From positions 1 through 38,319 of IMG/VR virus record IMGVR_UViG_2897369580_000003: a DNA stretch of 38,319 nucleotides. The stretch is one strand, 5' to 3'. The notes under the pieces are model-generated. The model had not been told where the DNA came from, did no database searches, and saw only the letters and a list, made by a program, of their open reading frames with translations. Both the position numbers and the translations under genes were made by a program. This document shows positions 2,909 to 10,169 of the stretch, one piece after another; positions within the stretch are counted from its first letter, which is position 1, and each line of letters opens with the position of its first letter. Source of the stretch: a virus (Duplodnaviria > Heunggongvirae > Uroviricota > Caudoviricetes).

Positions 2909-3103
2909 TTACTCAATCACTCCCGCAAATCTGTAAATCTTGTGTGATGCCCATTTATTTGGGCAGGATTTAATATCAGGATCTGGAAAGTCAGGCCTGT
3001 ATTTCTGGCCAGTTCTCCTGTTTACGCTGTTCCAGCGAAGAACTGTCGATACTGAAACACCACAGAAATCGGCGACTTGTTTAGTTGTCATTAAGTTGTT
3101 CAT
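2909..3103 (-). CDS. xis: Excisionase / AlpA-family helix-turn-helix DNA-binding protein
   Basis: 64 aa; TTKQVADFCGVSVSTVLRW motif typical of Xis/AlpA HTH; start overlaps the stop of the upstream gene. Confidence 0.75.
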   Translation of the reverse strand: MNNLMTTKQVADFCGVSVSTVLRWNSVNRRTGQKYRPDFPDPDIKSCPNKWASHKIYRFAGVIE

Positions 3104-4303: not shown

Positions 4304-4797
4304 TGGCTGCCTCCTTTGCGAATCTGTTCCGCCCATTCTTCAAGGGATTTCTCCGCATATTCACCAGACAGGCCATCAATCGGATGCGGTTCATTAGCCA
4401 ACTCTTCTTTCGCTGACAAAATCATGCGTGTAACGTCGAAAACTTCACGCAAAGACTTATTGATAAATCCGTGATTGAACGCAGCAGCAAGACGGCTGGC
4501 GGCATAGTTAATCCCCTCGTTGCGTGCTTCCGCCCGGACTTCAGCCAGGAAAGCATCAGTGGCTGGGGTTTCCGTGAAGTTGTCCTCCCAACCGTAGTAC
4601 TCCTGACGACAGAAGTTATTAAATTCCTTCTCCGACTGTTTAAGCGCCGCATTCTCCGCTGCCAGCGCCGCGCACTTGGCCTCCGCTTCAGCAAATTTAC
4701 GCGCCAGATATTCAGCGTTTGTTTCATTCACTTTCAGGTCTCGCGGTACACATCTCCCACGAAGAAACCCTTCCATTTCGAAAACATTCATGCGCAT
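4300..4797 (-). CDS. Ea22/Ead-like hypothetical phage early protein
   Basis: 165-aa ORF in the early-left operon; alanine-rich coiled-coil segment. Confidence 0.5.
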   Translation of the reverse strand: MRMNVFEMEGFLRGRCVPRDLKVNETNAEYLARKFAEAEAKCAALAAENAALKQSEKEFNNFCRQEYYGWEDNFTETPATDAFLAEVRAEARNEGINYAASRLAAAFNHGFINKSLREVFDVTRMILSAKEELANEPHPIDGLSGEYAEKSLEEWAEQIRKGGSQ

Positions 4798-5324
4798 TTG
4801 CGTAACTCCGATAACTCGTTAAAACGTTCCATAAACATCCCGTAGGCATGGTCCGGTGCCAGTGGAATCACTTTGAACATATCTGTTGCCGGGATACCTT
4901 CCAGTACAGGCCAGAAAGAGCCATCATCAAGCCCGAGATCGCGGCGTTCGGTTGCCAGCATAATGAGATCGGCATATTTCACTGGCGTGCTCATAACCGG
5001 AGGTAACCCGTATTTCTCACGGATTACGGCGTCTATTTTTTCTTCCATCCGTTTATAGTCAGGAAGAAGGCGTTTCAGTGGTGCGGGGATGTCCTGGCAA
5101 TACGCTTCTGTTGCATCATGCATTAACGCTTCAAAAGCAAATTCCTGAGGCACCAGCTGGCTGCAAAGCACCGCATGTTGGGCGACGCTGTAGAAGTGAG
5201 AAAGATGACCGGCAAAGCGGCAGATATTTGAAAGGGAAACCGCGATATCGTTAATAACGATGTCGTCTTTATTTATCTTGTCATAATAAAAATGCTTCCC
5301 GGAAAAAGTTTTAATAAATGACAT
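4788..5324 (-). CDS. HD-domain phosphohydrolase, YfdR-like
   Basis: His...HD motif (FAGHLSH ... LMHDATE); likely start at the internal MSFIK with GGAGA RBS; resembles the CPS-53 yfdR product as I recall it. Confidence 0.65.
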   Translation of the reverse strand: MSFIKTFSGKHFYYDKINKDDIVINDIAVSLSNICRFAGHLSHFYSVAQHAVLCSQLVPQEFAFEALMHDATEAYCQDIPAPLKRLLPDYKRMEEKIDAVIREKYGLPPVMSTPVKYADLIMLATERRDLGLDDGSFWPVLEGIPATDMFKVIPLAPDHAYGMFMERFNELSELRKCA

Positions 5325-5451
5325 TTTGTTCTCCACGTATATGCGCTGCACCGCGCTGAATTCTGGTAAAAAGAATCCCTCACCATCCGGCGATTATTGA
5401 GTAAATTACGTTTCCATAAATGCCCCCGCAGGGGCATTTGCAGTAATGAAA

Positions 5452-6276
5452 TCAGGCGGTGAAAGTACCAATAAAGGTTTCTACTTTGCTGTCCTTGAAT
5501 TTCTCAACAAGCAGATCACGAAATTCGTTAGCCATTTCTTCCTGCACCGCCTCCAGCTGAATAATGCGCAGAACCAGTACAGGACGATCGCCAGTGATAA
5601 TACTGAGGCGTAATTTAAACGGACGTTCTTTCAGACCTTCAAACGGAACGCATTTAAATTCAAATGCCACTGGCATAATGTCTTTGGTCTTCGCTTCGAC
5701 AGACTCCATCAGGGAGCGTTTGCCGCTGAAGTCATTATCTTCAAAATCAGCGGTCTGGTTTGCTTCAATCGTGATTTTACGGACAGCCGCAGCCGCTTTT
5801 GTTGCCTGAATAGCGTCACCATTAGCATCAAAGCCCACAAGATAGTCGGCCCAGTCTTCAATCCATTCTGCCAGTGACTTCTGGGAGTTACGCTCGCCGT
5901 TAACAGACAACAGAGCAGAGAACGGTGCTGTCTTTTTCAGTTTGAGTGTGGCGGTGTTATCTGCGTGACCTGGTTCATCAATAGTACCTAGGTTAAGCAC
6001 ACTGACGGCACGCATATTATCAGCATCGATAAAGCAGCGGGTGCCTTCATCTGCAAGATCTTTAGAATAACGGGTAAAGTCATCGATGCTGGCAGTGGAA
6101 AGCGCACCACGGAAACGGAAGCGATTTAAATTAAATTTTTCCAGATCATGAATGCGGAAATTCTCAGGCAATGCCACAGCATCGGCACCAATCTTACTGA
6201 TAATTTCATTAACACCCTGAGCAGAAATAAGGGCATGGATTTGATTAATTGCGGTTGCGTCTAAGTTCTGAGACAT
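5452..6276 (-). CDS. YfdQ-like phage protein (DUF2303 family)
   Basis: 274 aa; same length and gene context (between YfdP-like and YfdR-like) as the CPS-53 module, from memory. Confidence 0.55.
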
Positions 6277-6341: not shown

Positions 6342-6704
6342 TTAACGACCTGCTGCGCGGAGTTTTCCGTCAGGTTCACCGGCAAGAGTCAGTAACTGTC
6401 CCTGGTCTTCCTGCAGAATAGTCAGGCGACCACCGCGATTGACATACATCGGCGTTTCGGTGGTGTCTTCTTCGGAAATTTTCCCGCGGTTAGTCGGGCG
6501 AACATATGAGAGTTTGTGTTTGATTTTCACACGGTTCTCATCAAATGGTTCGATTTCCAGGTTGAGTGAGACCTTCCCTTTGGTTTTCGTGTTCATCACA
6601 CCGGAAGCGACTTCACTGAGAACTGCGCCGATTTTGGTTTCAAATACGCCGCCGTCCAGCTCCCCGATAAATGCCTGCACATCAGTACTGCGTTCGCTAG
6701 CCAT
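6342..6704 (-). CDS. YfdP-like phage protein; the long ORF 6342..6890 is probably an over-extension
   Basis: AGGAG RBS 7 nt upstream of the ATG at 6704 (MASERSTDVQ...); the upstream part of the ORF contains an intrinsic terminator. Confidence 0.55.
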   Translation of the reverse strand: MASERSTDVQAFIGELDGGVFETKIGAVLSEVASGVMNTKTKGKVSLNLEIEPFDENRVKIKHKLSYVRPTNRGKISEEDTTETPMYVNRGGRLTILQEDQGQLLTLAGEPDGKLRAAGR

Positions 6705-6841
6705 TTTGCTGCTCCTCATCATATCGACCCTGCAAGGTCGGTTGGTTTCTCCACAAAACAGAGAAGAACACCTGCGGTGGCAGCCGCCCGGATGGATTGG
6801 GTTATGAGCCCGTCGTCCGGTGATGCTCTTCTCTGTTTTGT

Positions 6842-6887
6842 AAAAAGAGCGGTACCAGCCGGAAGCAAGTGTACAAACTGGTACCGC
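6842..6887 (-). terminator. Intrinsic terminator in the leader of the leftward early operon (10-bp stem GCGGTACCAG / CTGGTACCGC followed by a T-tract on the minus strand)
   Basis: Perfect inverted repeat 6849-6858 / 6878-6887; minus-strand RNA continues TCTTTTTAC. Confidence 0.55.
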
Positions 6888-7333
6888 CAAAGCAGTGGCT
6901 GTTGTGGTGACCGGTGCTGATCTCCGGCTTGCGGTTATTTCAGACTCTCACGGGCGTTTAATTGCCCCGCCGAACAGCTCTTTTCCGCAATAGCTGCAAT
7001 GTCTTTCGCGCATCAGCCTGCGCCTTCACCACAACGCTGAGAGCACTTAGCCAGTTACGGCACCACACTTTGTCGCGGCTCCATAAATGCCCTCATCGTT
7101 GCACCCTGGTCTCTTCCCAGGCGTCAAACCGGATCGCCACGCTGGTTAGGCGTCTTATCAGCATCATCATTGACTTGCACATTCCGGCTACCTGGTTTGT
7201 TTGCCCGAGCAAGGAGTGGATTGTCCCCTTTAACGTCCCCAGACCGCTAACGACGCATGTGCCATACGCCGTGTTACAACCAAATTTTGTTAGTACCTTG
7301 TTTGTTGGTCTGGAAAGAAAGATAAAATGAAGT

Positions 7334-7372
7334 TGCGCATTGTGCAAGTGTTTTTATTGCGAGATATGCAAT
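7334..7372. promoter_or_regulatory. Putative OL operators and PL region: palindromes TTGCgcattgtGCAA (7334-7348) and ATTGCgagatatGCAAT (7356-7372)
   Basis: Dyad symmetry read directly; same ATTGC-N7-GCAA(T) architecture recurs on the other side of the repressor gene. Confidence 0.5.
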
Positions 7373-7380
7373 TTGGTGGG

Positions 7381-7406
7381 TAATGAAAAGCCACCTTCGG
7401 GTGGCT
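7381..7406 (-). terminator. Hairpin terminator downstream of the repressor gene (AGCCACC-TTCG-GGTGGCT)
   Basis: 7-bp perfect stem with TTCG tetraloop immediately 3' of the cI-like stop on the minus strand, followed by a modest T-run. Confidence 0.5.
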
Positions 7407-7426
7407 AATTGATGAGGAAGTAAGGG

Positions 7427-8119
7427 TTAATTGTGTCGTTTAAGGGTTTGTGACTGGCTGATTAAGACCTTTCCAAAGACCATAAACCGGTGTTCATTTT
7501 CGCTGGTAATTCCCCATTCACGGTAAATCTGGTTATCAGAAATCACCAGTAGTTTGTCAGGTATCATTTGCAGTCGTTTGACATAAATTTTATCATCAAA
7601 ACCAAATACATAGATACCATCTCCATCAAACTGATTGATACTGACATCAACGAAGATGAGATCTCCTGGCTCAATGGTTGGACACATACTGTCCCCACGA
7701 ACGTTGATAACTTTAATGTGATTGGCTGGTCGTCCGCCAAACATCGATACAGCATTATCAGTTCTGTATTCAATGGCATGAATCACATCAATGACATCAC
7801 CGCCCTGGATAAGGCCATTTCCCGCACTGGCACTGACATCCAGCATTTCAATACGGAATACATCCTTCACCTGCGCAACATCCTCACTAATACTGTTTTT
7901 ACATACAGTATTACTTTTGACGTCTGAGGTAAAGAGATCAGCAATATCAACACCTAAGCTCCTGGCAATATTACTCAGGGCTTGTTCAGTGAATTGTTTC
8001 TGCTTACCTGTTTCCAGGCGCGAGATATTCGCCGCATCCACTCCTATTGCTTCAGCGAGATCGGCGATTTTCATGTTCTTCGCCTGGCGAAGTTGTCTGA
8101 CTCGGTTTCCTATGTTCAT
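7427..8119 (-). CDS. CI-like prophage repressor (N-terminal HTH, C-terminal S24 LexA-type peptidase domain)
   Basis: 230 aa; HTH near the N-terminus; C-terminal VRGDSM ... IYVKRL pattern of S24 autopeptidases; divergent from the Cro-like gene. Confidence 0.85.
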   Translation of the reverse strand: MNIGNRVRQLRQAKNMKIADLAEAIGVDAANISRLETGKQKQFTEQALSNIARSLGVDIADLFTSDVKSNTVCKNSISEDVAQVKDVFRIEMLDVSASAGNGLIQGGDVIDVIHAIEYRTDNAVSMFGGRPANHIKVINVRGDSMCPTIEPGDLIFVDVSINQFDGDGIYVFGFDDKIYVKRLQMIPDKLLVISDNQIYREWGITSENEHRFMVFGKVLISQSQTLKRHN

Positions 8120-8138: not shown

Positions 8139-8202
8139 ATTGCGCGTTAAGCAAATCAACTTGCGCAAAATATTTGCGTGAAATAATATGCTCATCACGC
8201 AA
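8139..8202. promoter_or_regulatory. Putative OR operators with PR/PRM: ATTGCgcgttaaGCAAA (8139-8155), palindrome TTGCGCAA (8161-8168), TTGCGTG...CACGCAA (8174-8202); candidate PR -35 TTGCGC / -10 TAATAT
   Basis: Dyad symmetries and hexamers read directly in the 97-bp divergent intergenic region. Confidence 0.5.
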
Positions 8203-8216
8203 TATGTGGAGGTTAT

Positions 8217-8477
8217 ATGCAATCACCATTACGAAATGTGCGTAAGGCGCACGGCTTTACTTTGCAGCATGTTGCTGCGGGCGTTCAGGTTAATCCAGCA
8301 ACGCTGAGTCGTATTGAGAGACTGGAACAAATTCCATCTATCGATCTTGCAGAGCGTTTGGCCAATTTTTTTAAGGGAGAAATCAGCGAAATGCAGATTC
8401 TCTATCCTGCACGCTTTCAATCTAGTCAAAACCGGAATGAGTTAAAACCACAGGAACAGGAGGTAAGCCGTGGGTAA
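8217..8477 (+). CDS. Cro-like HTH transcriptional regulator (YdaS-like)
   Basis: 86 aa; HTH (GFTLQHVAAGVQVNPATLSRIE); GGAGG RBS; divergent from the repressor. Confidence 0.75.
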   Translation: MQSPLRNVRKAHGFTLQHVAAGVQVNPATLSRIERLEQIPSIDLAERLANFFKGEISEMQILYPARFQSSQNRNELKPQEQEVSRG

Positions 8478-9021
8478 GCATCACTGGAAAGTGGAAAAAC
8501 AGCCTGAGTGGTACGTGAAAGCTGTCAGAAAAACTATCGCGGCGTTGCCGGGGGGTTACGCTGAAGCTGCTGAGTGGCTGGATGTAACAGAGAACGCTTT
8601 ATTCAACCGCCTTCGTGCCGATGGCGATCAGTTTTTTCCGTTGGGATGGGCAATGGTTTTACAGCGTGCGGCTGGTACTCACCACATTGCGGATGCTGTC
8701 GCACAGTCTGCTGGTGGGGTGTTTGTATCACTTCCAGAAATTGAGGAAGTAGAGAACGCTGATATCAACCAACGTCTACTGGAAGTTATTGAACAGATCG
8801 GGAGTTACTCAAAGCAGATTCGTTCGGCAATCGAAGACGGGGTAGTGGAGCCACATGAGCAGACAGCAATTAATGATGAGTTGTATCTGTCGATTTCGAA
8901 GCTCCAGGAACATGCGGCACTGGTCTACAAAATTTTCTGCGTTCCAGAAAAGAGTGACGCCCGCGAGTGTGCAGCTCCGGGCGTCGTGGCGTTTTGTGTC
9001 TGTGGAGAAACTAACGCATGA
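8470..9021 (+). CDS. YdaT-like (CII-like) early regulatory protein
   Basis: 183 aa immediately after the Cro-like gene with overlapping start; resembles the Rac racR-ydaS-ydaT arrangement by context and memory. Confidence 0.45.
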   Translation: MGKHHWKVEKQPEWYVKAVRKTIAALPGGYAEAAEWLDVTENALFNRLRADGDQFFPLGWAMVLQRAAGTHHIADAVAQSAGGVFVSLPEIEEVENADINQRLLEVIEQIGSYSKQIRSAIEDGVVEPHEQTAINDELYLSISKLQEHAALVYKIFCVPEKSDARECAAPGVVAFCVCGETNA

Positions 9022-9166
9022 ACAGTTTAACGGCAAATAACCGTTGGTCGCAACAGCTGGTGGTCCGCGTGGCTGAACACCTGTTGTTACGGCATGAATG
9101 CAGATTACCAAATCACCTGGCTGTAAGTAACCACAGAGAACTTTACCTGACTGTGGGGGGCGAGTT

Positions 9167-9346
9167 GTGCAGGAACTTAACCGCTGGTTTCGTGACGGAA
9201 GAGGACTTTATGTTCATGTTATTCGTTGGGAGCCAGAAACACAGCGCGTTATCTATCTTCGCAAAGACTACCCGCATGAGTGCTTTAGTCCTTTGTGGAA
9301 ATTCAGGCGTGATTTTGTTGAGTGTGAAGGACCACCAGCACATTGA
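9167..9346 (+). CDS. Possible small protein (59 aa, GTG start after GGGGGG RBS)
   Basis: ORF below the 60-aa track cutoff found by manual translation; no known motif. Confidence 0.25.
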   Translation: MQELNRWFRDGRGLYVHVIRWEPETQRVIYLRKDYPHECFSPLWKFRRDFVECEGPPAH

Positions 9347-9376
9347 TTCTGCCATTCCGGGACGTTACACTGTTCA

Positions 9377-9454
9377 GGCACCTTATAAAGCGGGTGCCGG
9401 GCGTGGAAACCCGGAATTCACCAAAGCGCACAACCGCGCTCTTGCGGTTTTTTT
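9377..9454 (+). terminator. Two adjacent stem-loops (GGCACC/GGTGCC 9377-9398; CCGGG/CCCGG 9397-9414) followed by an intrinsic terminator (AACCGC-gctctt-GCGGTT + T7, 9432-9454)
   Basis: Inverted repeats and T-tract read directly; lies in an ORF-poor stretch between the immunity-region genes and Rha. Confidence 0.5.
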
Positions 9455-9623
9455 GTGTCATGAGCAGCATTACGCCCAAATTATGGTGGGGCGTGCAGGG
9501 CCAACTTCGGTTGGGCCGGGTTCTTTGGTGACCGGTATTTCCACCCCTGTACGTCTCACCACCAATAAGGTCGTGGAAAGCCTTGGTGGTGAGTTATTTA
9601 AAATCACCAAAGAGGCTGCCATC

Positions 9624-10169
9624 ATGGCTACGATCCCAACCCTCACTCAACCTGAAATTGCCATCGTTGATGGTCAGGCTGTTACTTCATCCCTGGCTGT
9701 TGCCAACTTCTTCTCCAAACGTCATGACGATGTACTGAAAAAGATCCGCACGCTTGAATGCTCCGCATCATTCACTGCCCGCAATTTTTCGGTGAGTGAT
9801 TACACCGATTGCACAGGCCGCAAACTACCTTGCTATCAAATAACCCGCGACGGCTTTGCGTTTCTTGCTATGGGTTTCACGGGTAAACGTGCTGCCCAGT
9901 TCAAAGAGGCATACATCAATGCCTTTAACCAGATGGAGAAACAGCTTTCAAAGCCCGCTGTACCGAGCGACGTTGCACATAACGCCAGCGTTCTCTGTTC
10001 CTACATTTCATCAATTCATCAGGTCTGGCTGCAGCAGCTTTATCCTATGTTGGCAAAAGCCGAATCTCCGCTGGCTGTTAGCTTATATGACTATATTAAT
10101 GATGCTTCGGCGCTGGCCTGCCTCATAAATTTGTCGCTGAACCCTTCAGAGGTAAGGGGGCGCAAATGA
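9624..10169 (+). CDS. Rha-family phage regulatory protein
   Basis: Rha motif (AVTSSLAVANFFSKRHDDVLKKIRTL) near the N-terminus when started at the ATG at 9624 (AGAGG RBS); the long ORF 9018..10169 is likely an artefactual extension. Confidence 0.7.
   Translation: MATIPTLTQPEIAIVDGQAVTSSLAVANFFSKRHDDVLKKIRTLECSASFTARNFSVSDYTDCTGRKLPCYQITRDGFAFLAMGFTGKRAAQFKEAYINAFNQMEKQLSKPAVPSDVAHNASVLCSYISSIHQVWLQQLYPMLAKAESPLAVSLYDYINDASALACLINLSLNPSEVRGRK

Follow-up and report, generated by a model that had tools for sequence, protein, structure and literature searches.

Lambda-like phages without an N gene are common (SfV, ST64B, LLS, mEp460, cdtI and the Stx2c-type Shiga-toxin phages among them), and the question they pose is by which route their transcription gets past the early-left terminators. 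We address it here in the virus record IMGVR_UViG_2897369580_000003, whose 38,319 nucleotides form the window to which all positions refer. The window is a lambdoid prophage of the mEp460/cdtI/SfV/Stx2c-phage type, and the region in question is the leader at 6705-7426, between the cI-like repressor gene and the first early-left gene. A first-pass annotation had seen here a strong minus-strand terminator and no N-like antiterminator, and had proposed a cis-acting antitermination RNA like put of phage HK022, or else an unrecognised small protein or small RNA. The small-RNA proposal is now strongly supported, as the leader consists almost entirely of conserved, structured RNA with extensive covariation. 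Five conserved RNA elements, which we call A, P6, B, T and D, follow one another leftward from the putative early-left promoter PL (Table 1). We lean, at somewhat better than even odds, towards reading them as a PL-driven noncoding RNA unit in which the terminator serves as an attenuator ahead of the early-left genes.

A mosaic of conserved RNA blocks

Searches with blastn against phage records split the leader into blocks with different relatives. At about 7285-7029, the relatives are P1 and P7, where the match falls between tRNA-Ile and ban in an interval without annotation, and phiV10-type (Uetakevirus) phages, where it lies just upstream of tRNA-Arg. The next stretch, about 7048-6900, finds its relatives in Klebsiella phage IME207 and the P1-like phage JL22, and 6889-6705 finds them in SfV and related phages. 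An alignment of six sequences contains compensated stems such as CCUGG/CCAGG, CCGG/CCGG and CCUCG/CGAGG. From A to T, the leader behaves as a self-contained, mobile RNA gene or unit. Of 5,426 complete E. coli genomes, 1,835 (about a third) match part of 6890-7300, and 460 match at least 80% of it; among the matches listed in these genomes, no annotated feature lies under A to B.

Known RNA families do not account for these elements. At the gathering thresholds of Rfam 15 (4,227 families), the whole window returned only isrK and C4, at 9378-9566. With the cutoff relaxed to E<=10, the region 6500-7600 gave only noise, the tRNA, riboswitch, T-box, GOLLD and ROOL models being unmatched there, and the same database applied to 14 diverse B loci found only tRNAs and an insertion sequence (IS) frameshift element. 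Characteristic strings of the leader were absent from the papers reached by a full-text literature search. A survey of IMG/VR, the sequence collection used here, reports many tRNA-like candidates and terminators along with 8,495 unnamed structured RNA candidates, in a text without PL leaders or the A and B motifs (Fremin et al. 2023, PMC10690425). As judged from sequence, A and B appear to be two unannotated RNA families absent from Rfam 15, and they may coincide with some of those unnamed candidates. The "Pas sRNA" was considered as a precedent and dropped, as the preprint concerns small RNAs of the late region. GOLLD and ROOL are large, ornate phage RNAs found beside tRNA genes. A and B resemble them in being phage-borne, tRNA-adjacent, multi-domain structured RNAs; however, neither Rfam model matches here, A and B together are shorter and modular, and the host range differs, A being essentially confined to Enterobacteriaceae-type genera.

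Element A is a pseudoknotted RNA located just after the putative PL

To define A, we collected its relatives through the 19-mer GGTAGCCGGAATGTGCAAG, which occurs in more than 120 IMG/VR contigs, and aligned 33 representatives of at most 90% mutual identity. Five helices and a pseudoknot emerge, with 97.0% of cells paired and 13 pairs changed on both sides, values reached by none of 500 shuffles; when the pairing partners are slid, only 24-46% of cells pair. Across the family the pseudoknot joins a (C/A)ACC loop to GGU(G/U), a C-G pair being replaced by A-U, and P5 as derived from the alignment reads CCUCG-GAAGAGA-CGAGG. The frequent G-U pairs in A identify the minus strand, the one read from PL, as the transcribed strand. 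An inner stem AUCG/CGAU nested in CACC/GGUG was tried and rejected, since it shows no covariation, whereas P4 plus the pseudoknot covaries. RNAalifold additionally pairs the P1 loop GCACAU with AUGUGC; these segments are invariant, so the pairing is neither supported nor excluded. With a covariance model of A (R1), the 38-kb window yields a single copy, which spans 7300-7073 and reaches 161.6 bits (E 1e-50); the next best hit has an E of 0.36.

Among species-representative genomes, the 19-mer is found essentially only in Enterobacteriaceae-type genera, including Escherichia, Citrobacter, Klebsiella, Kosakonia, Enterobacter, Kluyvera, Buttiauxella and Erwinia. In 19 lambdoid representatives, A lies downstream of a repressor gene on the same strand, and in 13 of these the repressor stop codon stands 173-335 nt ahead of the 19-mer. 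The repressors have many different sequences: of nine scanned, seven combine a helix-turn-helix (HTH) domain with Peptidase_S24 and two have the HTH domain only. On their other side lie cro- and cII-like genes. Because these same-strand repressors are so diverse, A is a regular feature just after PL across many immunity types. In several lambdoid loci, A and the early-left genes are separated by a convergent gene that has a two-way terminator. In 18 P1-type loci, A is directly preceded on the same strand by tRNA-Ile (tRNA-Met(CAU) according to ARAGORN).

The slot after P6 is filled by a tRNA or a tRNA-shaped RNA

Beyond A, the 5' strand of the P6 hairpin, CAACG-AU-GAGAGCAUU, pairs with AGUGCUCUC-AG-CGUUG, and compensated variants occur as CAAUCAAAGAGCG/CGCUCUUUUUGAUUG (locus L024) and GAAAGCGCACU/AGUGCGCUUC (L013). 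P6 marks the edge of a slot. In the window, its 3' strand abuts the 5' strand of B with a two-base overlap; in phiV10-type phages, it stops two bases short of the 5' end of tRNA-Arg(UCU). The slot holds tRNA-Arg, B or one of at least three other tRNA-like RNAs, in which an outer stem UGUGGU.../...ACCACA has a hairpin stacked on it. In 29 loci, tRNA-Arg(UCU) sits exactly in B's place, 165-230 nt past the A 19-mer and on the same strand.

B itself is laid out like a tRNA that has an acceptor stem, arms of the D and T kind and an elbow contact but no anticodon arm, as far as its predicted secondary structure conveys the geometry. Across the family, a closing stem of 7-12 bp is followed by GAAU, the D-like hairpin GCGC-AGGCUGAU-GCGC, a hypervariable domain of 30-140 nt in place of the anticodon arm, CAA, and, next to the closing stem's 3' strand, a 3' hairpin GCCGG-AGAUCAGCA-CCGGC. 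The 16-mer CAAGCCGGAGATCAGC from this 3' hairpin is present in over 120 additional viral contigs, of which many come from environmental metagenomes. Among 35 representatives, each of the nine closing-stem pairs is changed on both sides and 92.9% of cells pair, a level that none of 500 shuffles attained; pairing in the D-like and T-like stems is 99-100%. In 86 of 109 copies, the D-loop GCUGAU and the T-loop AUCAGC are complementary, and among the others are loops altered on both sides yet still complementary (AGCGA/UCGCU, UGGCA/UGCCA, ACUGA/UCAGU). Such loop-loop complementarity is higher than in any of 2,000 partner shuffles, though only modestly so (4.84, the shuffles peaking at 4.74).

B keeps tRNA company in unrelated phages. 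In JL22 it follows tRNA-Asn and tRNA-Thr; in IME207 it comes ahead of tRNA-Ser and tRNA-Arg, and in ZCKP8 ahead of tRNA-Arg and tRNA-Met. With its 7-bp acceptor-like stem, stacked hairpin, D-like arm, D/T loop contact and exchange with a real tRNA after P6, it resembles tRNAs and their mimics. It differs from a tRNA in a 9-nt T-like loop, an elbow of six Watson-Crick pairs and the absence of an encoded CCA after the stem. ARAGORN finds no tRNA in the window, and the Rfam tRNA, tmRNA and YrlA models leave B unmatched. Several tRNA mimics serve as processing signals or decoys, among them MALAT1-mascRNA, bacterial YrlA, the species 1 and 2 RNAs of phage T4 and the M3 RNA of phi80. The "M3-like RNA" of HK639 was examined as a relative of B and set aside, showing no similarity.

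Variants of this arrangement were also seen. Units made of a P5-like hairpin, a P6-type hairpin and a tRNA-like cassette occur without the A core in SfV (L263, 1380-1660), while L064 and L074 have a second one downstream of A; several units can therefore be arrayed in one leader. In JL22 (L134, 1501-1720), the opening motif AGTGCTCTTACCGTTGTGATGAA reappears past the B-type unit, which suggests two tandem B-type units after tRNA-Thr. The P6 apex is enlarged by about 100 nt in SPN9TCW (L009, about 1540-1690) and related loci, with T-arm-like hairpins CUGGUUCAAUUCCAG and GGUCAGUUCGAUUCGGAC that may be remnants of tRNA genes. In five phiV10-type loci (L025, L029, L080, L082, L099), the sequence directly 5' of A, GGCGGAGUGCGCUUCCAGGUGUG, resembles a P6-type 3' strand, and A there looks as if it were itself in a cassette slot. 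Finally, P5-like hairpins stand upstream of B in environmental contigs without the rest of A (L139 31-53, L156 8965-8995, L157 2818-2838, L234 9270-9290 and, in L193, upstream of 8375), in L139 and L193 directly before it. For this reason, P5 may be part of the B unit and not of A.

A conserved, predicted terminator and a long hairpin beyond it

The next element, T, is predicted to be an intrinsic terminator conserved across the family, with a hairpin far above chance. The 10-bp perfect stem with a T-tract that had been picked out at 6849-6887 was borne out: on the minus strand GCGGTACCAG (6887-6878) pairs with CTGGTACCGC (6858-6849), and RNAfold extends this to 13 pairs around a 15-nt loop (dG -21.5 kcal/mol, z -2.5; tail UCUUUUUA), the stem being followed at 6848-6841 by U C UUUUU A. 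A simple terminator scanner missed it because its loop limit is 8 nt. The fetched loci contain 93 copies with 26 distinct sequences. In each, GGCGGU and a variable segment of 5 nt lead into a loop, after which come the matching complement, ACCGCC and CUUUUUAC; the inner stem is compensated (ACCAG/CUGGU, GAUGG/CUAUC, GCCAG/CUGGC, GGCAG/CUGACC). In both lambdoid and phiV10-type phages, T stands 300-700 nt past the A 19-mer, between the RNA unit and open reading frames (ORFs) on the same strand; P1-type phages lack it.

Directly past T lies D, a hairpin with a stem of about 20 bp. Its 20-nt arms are fully complementary when G-U pairs are included and hold a 15-bp perfect repeat (6755-6769/6828-6842); the fold of 6700-6860, at -67.4 kcal/mol, extends the helix further. 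Compensated changes (GAGUAUC/GAUGCUC) are found in L091, L125 and L253. With a stem of suitable length, D is a candidate RNase III site. Whichever gene comes next (yfdP, xis/int or others), T is accompanied by D and by the short hairpin ahead of the Shine-Dalgarno sequence. We take this joint conservation of T with what lies beyond it as an indirect sign that transcription is intended to proceed past T.

Ahead of a conserved terminator, A has an elaborate conserved fold in which unpaired nucleotides are invariant, and it is always accompanied by a tRNA or a tRNA-shaped RNA. This might suggest that A senses a ligand or a tRNA, in the manner of a riboswitch or T-box, and so decides whether T forms. 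We regard this as improbable. A and T are separated by 200-400 nt that include a whole tRNA or tRNA-like gene, no alternative pairing was found between A and either arm of T, P1-type copies of A have no T to control, and the riboswitch and T-box families went unmatched.

The leader has no conserved reading frame and the operon no N

ORFs of 30-122 aa exist on both strands of 6705-7426, and neither of the two leader ORFs tested has a match in PHROGs. Existing records annotate the leader inconsistently, with two plus-strand ORFs in mEp460, three minus-strand ORFs in Stx2k, one ORF in cdtI and none in Stx2c phages. The only ATG-ORF with a conserved start, MCK..., begins inside the invariant GGAAUGUGCAAG; among the 33 A representatives its length runs from 5 to more than 38 aa, it enters all three frames past the variable hairpin, and its spacings differ by non-multiples of three. 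The first-pass view that some 600 bp here hold no convincing ORF therefore stands, there being no conserved ORF in 6705-7330, no PHROG family and no stable frame. Its view that an N-like antiterminator is missing stands as well: between yfdP and the excisionase gene, both included, eight minus-strand ORFs reach 55 aa or more, and PHROGs assigns none of them to an antiterminator family, and in the near-identical phage mEp460 the sole annotated antiterminator is Q-like.

These results bear directly on the proposal that the leader encodes an unrecognised small protein, such as an N-like arginine-rich peptide. Small ORFs do exist and are annotated in several records, and one candidate of 36 aa (6958-7068) ends in ...LLRKRAVRRGN. 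However, family matches are absent, reading frames are not conserved, and the 36-aa ORF lies within B, an element of tRNA arrays in unrelated phages with a hypervariable middle. Substitutions moreover track base-pairing rather than codons. We consider this proposal hardly credible and reject it.

A is not a put RNA, and the boxA-like strings are base-paired

The put RNA is about 70 nt long and folds into two stem-loops (PMC9378689), and a 2025 study of related N-less lambdoids of the yfdPQR type speculates on a put-like mechanism (PMC12315714). We built a covariance model (R2) from HK022 putL and putR and HK639 putL. It recovers its own three sequences at 70-91 bits (E 1e-19 to 1e-26), but gives no match at E<=10 in the window or in 10 representative A loci, so that neither contains, by this model, the conserved put sequence (GAACGGCGCG...CAUGCGUCGG...GGCGGGYUCAGGAWGA.CGGCAAU) in its two-stem-loop form. 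In the reverse direction, R1 finds nothing in HK022 or HK639, nor a second copy of A after the early-right promoter PR in the 38-kb window. HK639 is likewise annotated with putL only, so a putR copy may not be universal. Alignment of put with the 5' half of A by MAFFT gives only scattered identities. As the two models are blind to each other's families and a PR-side copy is missing, A was rejected as a member of the put family, and the HK022 put-like proposal fails in this sense.

A likeness in position and context remains. Like put in HK022 and HK639, A is a noncoding RNA just after an early promoter, beginning about 40 nt past the putative PL start, upstream of terminators, in N-less lambdoids. 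The strings ACGGCG...CAUGCGUCG are shared, as is GGAAGAG in HK639. In A, however, the ACGGCG...CAUGCGUCG strings lie within a simple 8-bp hairpin, whereas the equivalent segment of put is part of a triplex-forming stem (PMC9378689). A is also larger, at about 170 nt with five helices and a pseudoknot against about 70 nt with two stem-loops, and it occurs in non-lambdoid phages beside tRNAs.

We then considered whether nascent A could nonetheless be a cis-acting antiterminator of unrelated sequence, one that binds the elongating RNA polymerase, makes it resist T and later terminators, and so replaces N. Its place fits, ahead of every terminator and ORF, and so do the absence of N and the presence of xis downstream. 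The long invariant unpaired segments and the pseudoknot would suit a protein-docking surface. Two unrelated groups of phages have conserved T alongside A, and ORFs of the same strand invariably lie beyond T; in several lambdoids the convergent gene with its two-way terminator stands in the way as well. The strings shared with put and the guess of a put-like mechanism (PMC12315714) point in the same direction. Against this, neither covariance model recognises the other's family, the PR operon has no second copy, the phiV10-type unit precedes only one or two small ORFs, and the P1 unit follows a tRNA and has no T downstream. The put RNA acts in cis on RNA polymerase (beta' zinc-binding domain), where it suppresses pausing and termination, and it is not known to need Nus or other host factors. 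The mEp collection, which includes mEp460, is in contrast described as Nus-dependent (PMC11893012).

SfV provides a further reference point. There, PL is followed first by an ORF and by a convergent gene that has a terminator; next come a hairpin like P5, then P6 and a different tRNA-like cassette, and finally T, D and yfdP. The A core is absent, R1 giving only noise even with filters off. Since SfV keeps T and D without the A core, A is not the sole route past T. A put-like function is weakened both by SfV, in which T stands ahead of the same early genes, and by the finding of the unit from A to its terminator outside lambdoid early operons. On balance, an antiterminating A is a serious but unlikely alternative.

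The lambda PL leader is long and untranslated, carries RNA signals and terminators ahead of the early-left genes, and contains a duplex that is an RNase III site. The present leader has the same outline, with T and with D as the long duplex. It differs in that there is no N gene and no clear single-stranded boxA beside a boxB pentaloop, and in that it is a set of RNA genes shared with non-lambdoid phages. As possible parts of a nut site, the leader does have P5, a hairpin with a purine loop, and two strings resembling boxA, although these strings are base-paired and unconserved in sequence. One lies in the P6 3' strand at 7047-7039 (AGUGCUCUC, replaced by UGCUCUUU at numerous other loci; UGCUCU(C/U)), the other at T, at 6851-6838 (CGCUCUUUUUACAA). 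A boxA-like match lies downstream of A in 76 of 110 loci, against 6 upstream.

On this evidence, a Nus-dependent but N-independent site of the rRNA-operon type might shield the untranslated leader from Rho, with P5 as boxB and the P6 string or CGCUCUUUUUACAA as boxA. A P5-type hairpin accompanies every cassette, including that of SfV and, directly before B, those of environmental contigs. Untranslated CRISPR arrays are reported to use boxA in this way (PMC7665894), and the reported Nus dependence of mEp phages (PMC11893012) would fit. That dependence could, however, stem from Q. Both boxA-like strings are paired in conserved helices with covarying partner strands, and the P6 string becomes GCGCUU in L013-type loci; what is conserved is thus the pairing and not a boxA sequence. 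Antitermination of the rRNA type, moreover, acts mainly against Rho rather than against intrinsic terminators, and T is intrinsic. We consider such a site a poor candidate, if marginally better than a sensing role for A.

Genomic setting

Across 6600-7500, identity is 98-99% with mEp460 and PhiR63_1 and about 96-97% with Stx2k and Stx2a phages. cdtI and fifteen Stx2c phages have another immunity region and match the left three quarters at about 89%. The features of the leader and its surroundings are collected in Table 1. The assignment of PL and its operators OL to 7319-7372, with a predicted start near 7311, is plausible from the sequence. A consensus promoter scanner did not call PL at 7319-7347, and similar TTGCG...GCAA palindromes lie between cI and cro (8140-8200). 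The terminator of the cI-like gene, with 7 pairs, a GAAG loop and a TTTTC tail, stands only about 20 nt ahead of the OL palindromes. As the repressor gene has this clean terminator of its own, read-through of the immunity transcript into the leader is probably blocked.

Table 1. Features of the early-left leader and neighbouring genes, by position in the window
Feature	Positions	Strand	Description	Basis or remark
Element A	7272-7105	minus	structured RNA of about 170 nt, five helices and a pseudoknot	covariation, 33 representatives
A, P1	7271-7251	minus	hairpin, loop GGCAC	
A, P2		minus	GC..UCUGG/CCAGGUAGC	closes the variable hairpin
A, 19-mer	7192-7174	minus	invariant, single-stranded, GGUAGCCGGAAUGUGCAAG = GGTAGCCGGAATGTGCAAG	variable hairpin P3 next
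A, P4	7153-7150 with 7142-7139	minus	4 bp	
A, pseudoknot	7147-7144 with 7130-7127	minus	P4 loop AACC with GGUU	
A, P5	7121-7105	minus	CCUGG-GAAGAGA-CCAGG	
P6	7101-7032 (7101-7086 with 7047-7032)	minus	hairpin, CAACG-AU-GAGGGCAUU with AGUGCUCUC-AG-CGUUG, apex variable	seen in sequences, no formal score
Element B	7033-6903	minus	tRNA-shaped RNA	covariation, 35 representatives
B, acceptor-like stem	7033-7027 with 6909-6903	minus	UGUGGUG with CACCACA	
B, D-like hairpin	7023-7008	minus	GCGC-AGGCUGAU-GCGC	variable domain next
B, T-like hairpin	6928-6910	minus	GCCGG-AGAUCAGCA-CCGGU	stacked on acceptor-like stem
Element T	6888-6848, tail 6847-6841	minus	predicted intrinsic terminator, GGCGGUACCAG...CUGGUACCGCU, tail C-UUUUU-A	
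Element D	6841-6822 with 6772-6753	minus	long hairpin, ACAAAACAGAGAAGAGCAUC with GGUGUUCUUCUCUGUUUUGU	
Leader end	6740-6725; 6717-6712	minus	hairpin CGACCUUGCAGGGUCG; Shine-Dalgarno GAGGAG	ahead of ATG at 6704; conserved
Putative PL	-35 7347-7342; -10 7324-7319	minus	TTGCAC, 17-nt spacer, TATCTT	direct reading of sequence
Putative OL	7333-7347; 7358-7372	minus	palindromes TTGCGCATTGTGCAA; TTGCGAGATATGCAA	inferred operators
cI-gene terminator	7389-7406	minus	AGCCACCCGAAGGTGGCT then TTTTC	terminator scan; directly after cI stop
cI-like repressor	7427-8119	minus	HTH plus Peptidase_S24	
cro	8217-8477			
cII-like gene	8470-9021			
YfdP-like (phrog_204)	6342-6704	minus	first early-left gene, ATG at 6704	
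YfdQ-like	5452-6276	minus		
YfdR-like	4788-5351	minus		
xis	2909-3103		excisionase	far end of early-left operon

The two Rfam hits lie on the plus strand of the right arm: isrK at 9378-9454 (67 bits) and the C4 antisense RNA at 9479-9566 (83.6 bits). Both fall inside an ORF at 9018-10169 (383 aa), annotated in mEp460 as gp41, "transcriptional regulator". The first ~200 codons of this ORF are therefore probably noncoding, in an arrangement like P1 immI (c4, then ant), and the antirepressor gene probably starts near 9640.

How the leader may work

We envision the following sequence of events for the PL-driven noncoding RNA unit. Once the repressor leaves OL and PL, the first ~470 nt of the transcript would be a composite RNA of A, P6, B and T. 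This primary transcript would be cut at the cassette boundaries like a tRNA precursor, freeing A and B as separate stable RNAs; the cassettes share an acceptor-plus-hairpin minihelix known to tRNA-processing enzymes, and the exchange of B for a true tRNA also suggests that these enzymes cut the precursor at the cassette. The early-left protein genes, down to xis, would be reached only by those polymerases that pass T. With the genes lying past it, T would be an attenuator, fixing how much leader RNA is made relative to early-left mRNA. D, just past T, would serve like an RNase III site at which transcripts that have read through T are either cut or stabilised.

Sequence comparison establishes the elements with their folds, conservation, order and strand, their place behind cI-type repressor genes, and the lack of N and put; the promoter, the 3' end at T, processing at the cassette and at D, the stability of A and B and any activity of theirs are predictions. 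Several points weigh against this account. The T loop is long, and only five U residues are consecutive. If T is efficient, passive read-through alone would leave xis and the other early genes short of transcription, a point in favour of an active bypass such as an antiterminating A. P1-type phages carry A without T, so A must have some role that does not need the terminator, and the loops of B are conserved beyond the needs of a processing signal, pointing to a specific partner.

Implications for N-less lambdoid phages

To the question of how N-less lambdoids pass their early-left terminators, what is added here is not a put RNA but a defined, conserved set of RNAs with exact coordinates, each separately deletable. 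The leader is thereby a concrete, testable candidate for early gene control in N-less lambda-like phages, several Shiga-toxin phages included, and B is distinctive as a tRNA mimic with an elbow of six Watson-Crick pairs that is interchangeable with a real tRNA. A bolder possibility, which we hold only tentatively and think unlikely as a whole, is that A is a protein-independent RNA that reprograms RNA polymerase and that B, as a ligand or decoy, engages a host enzyme or a defence nuclease that recognises tRNAs, the two being the first induction products in N-less lambdoids, including Stx2c, Stx2k and some Stx2a phages. If so, A would be a second, structurally unrelated solution to the problem that put solves, and A and B would be previously undescribed classes of phage RNA. 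Should either act on polymerase, RNase P or tRNA-directed defence, this would bear on prophage induction, that of Shiga-toxin phages included.

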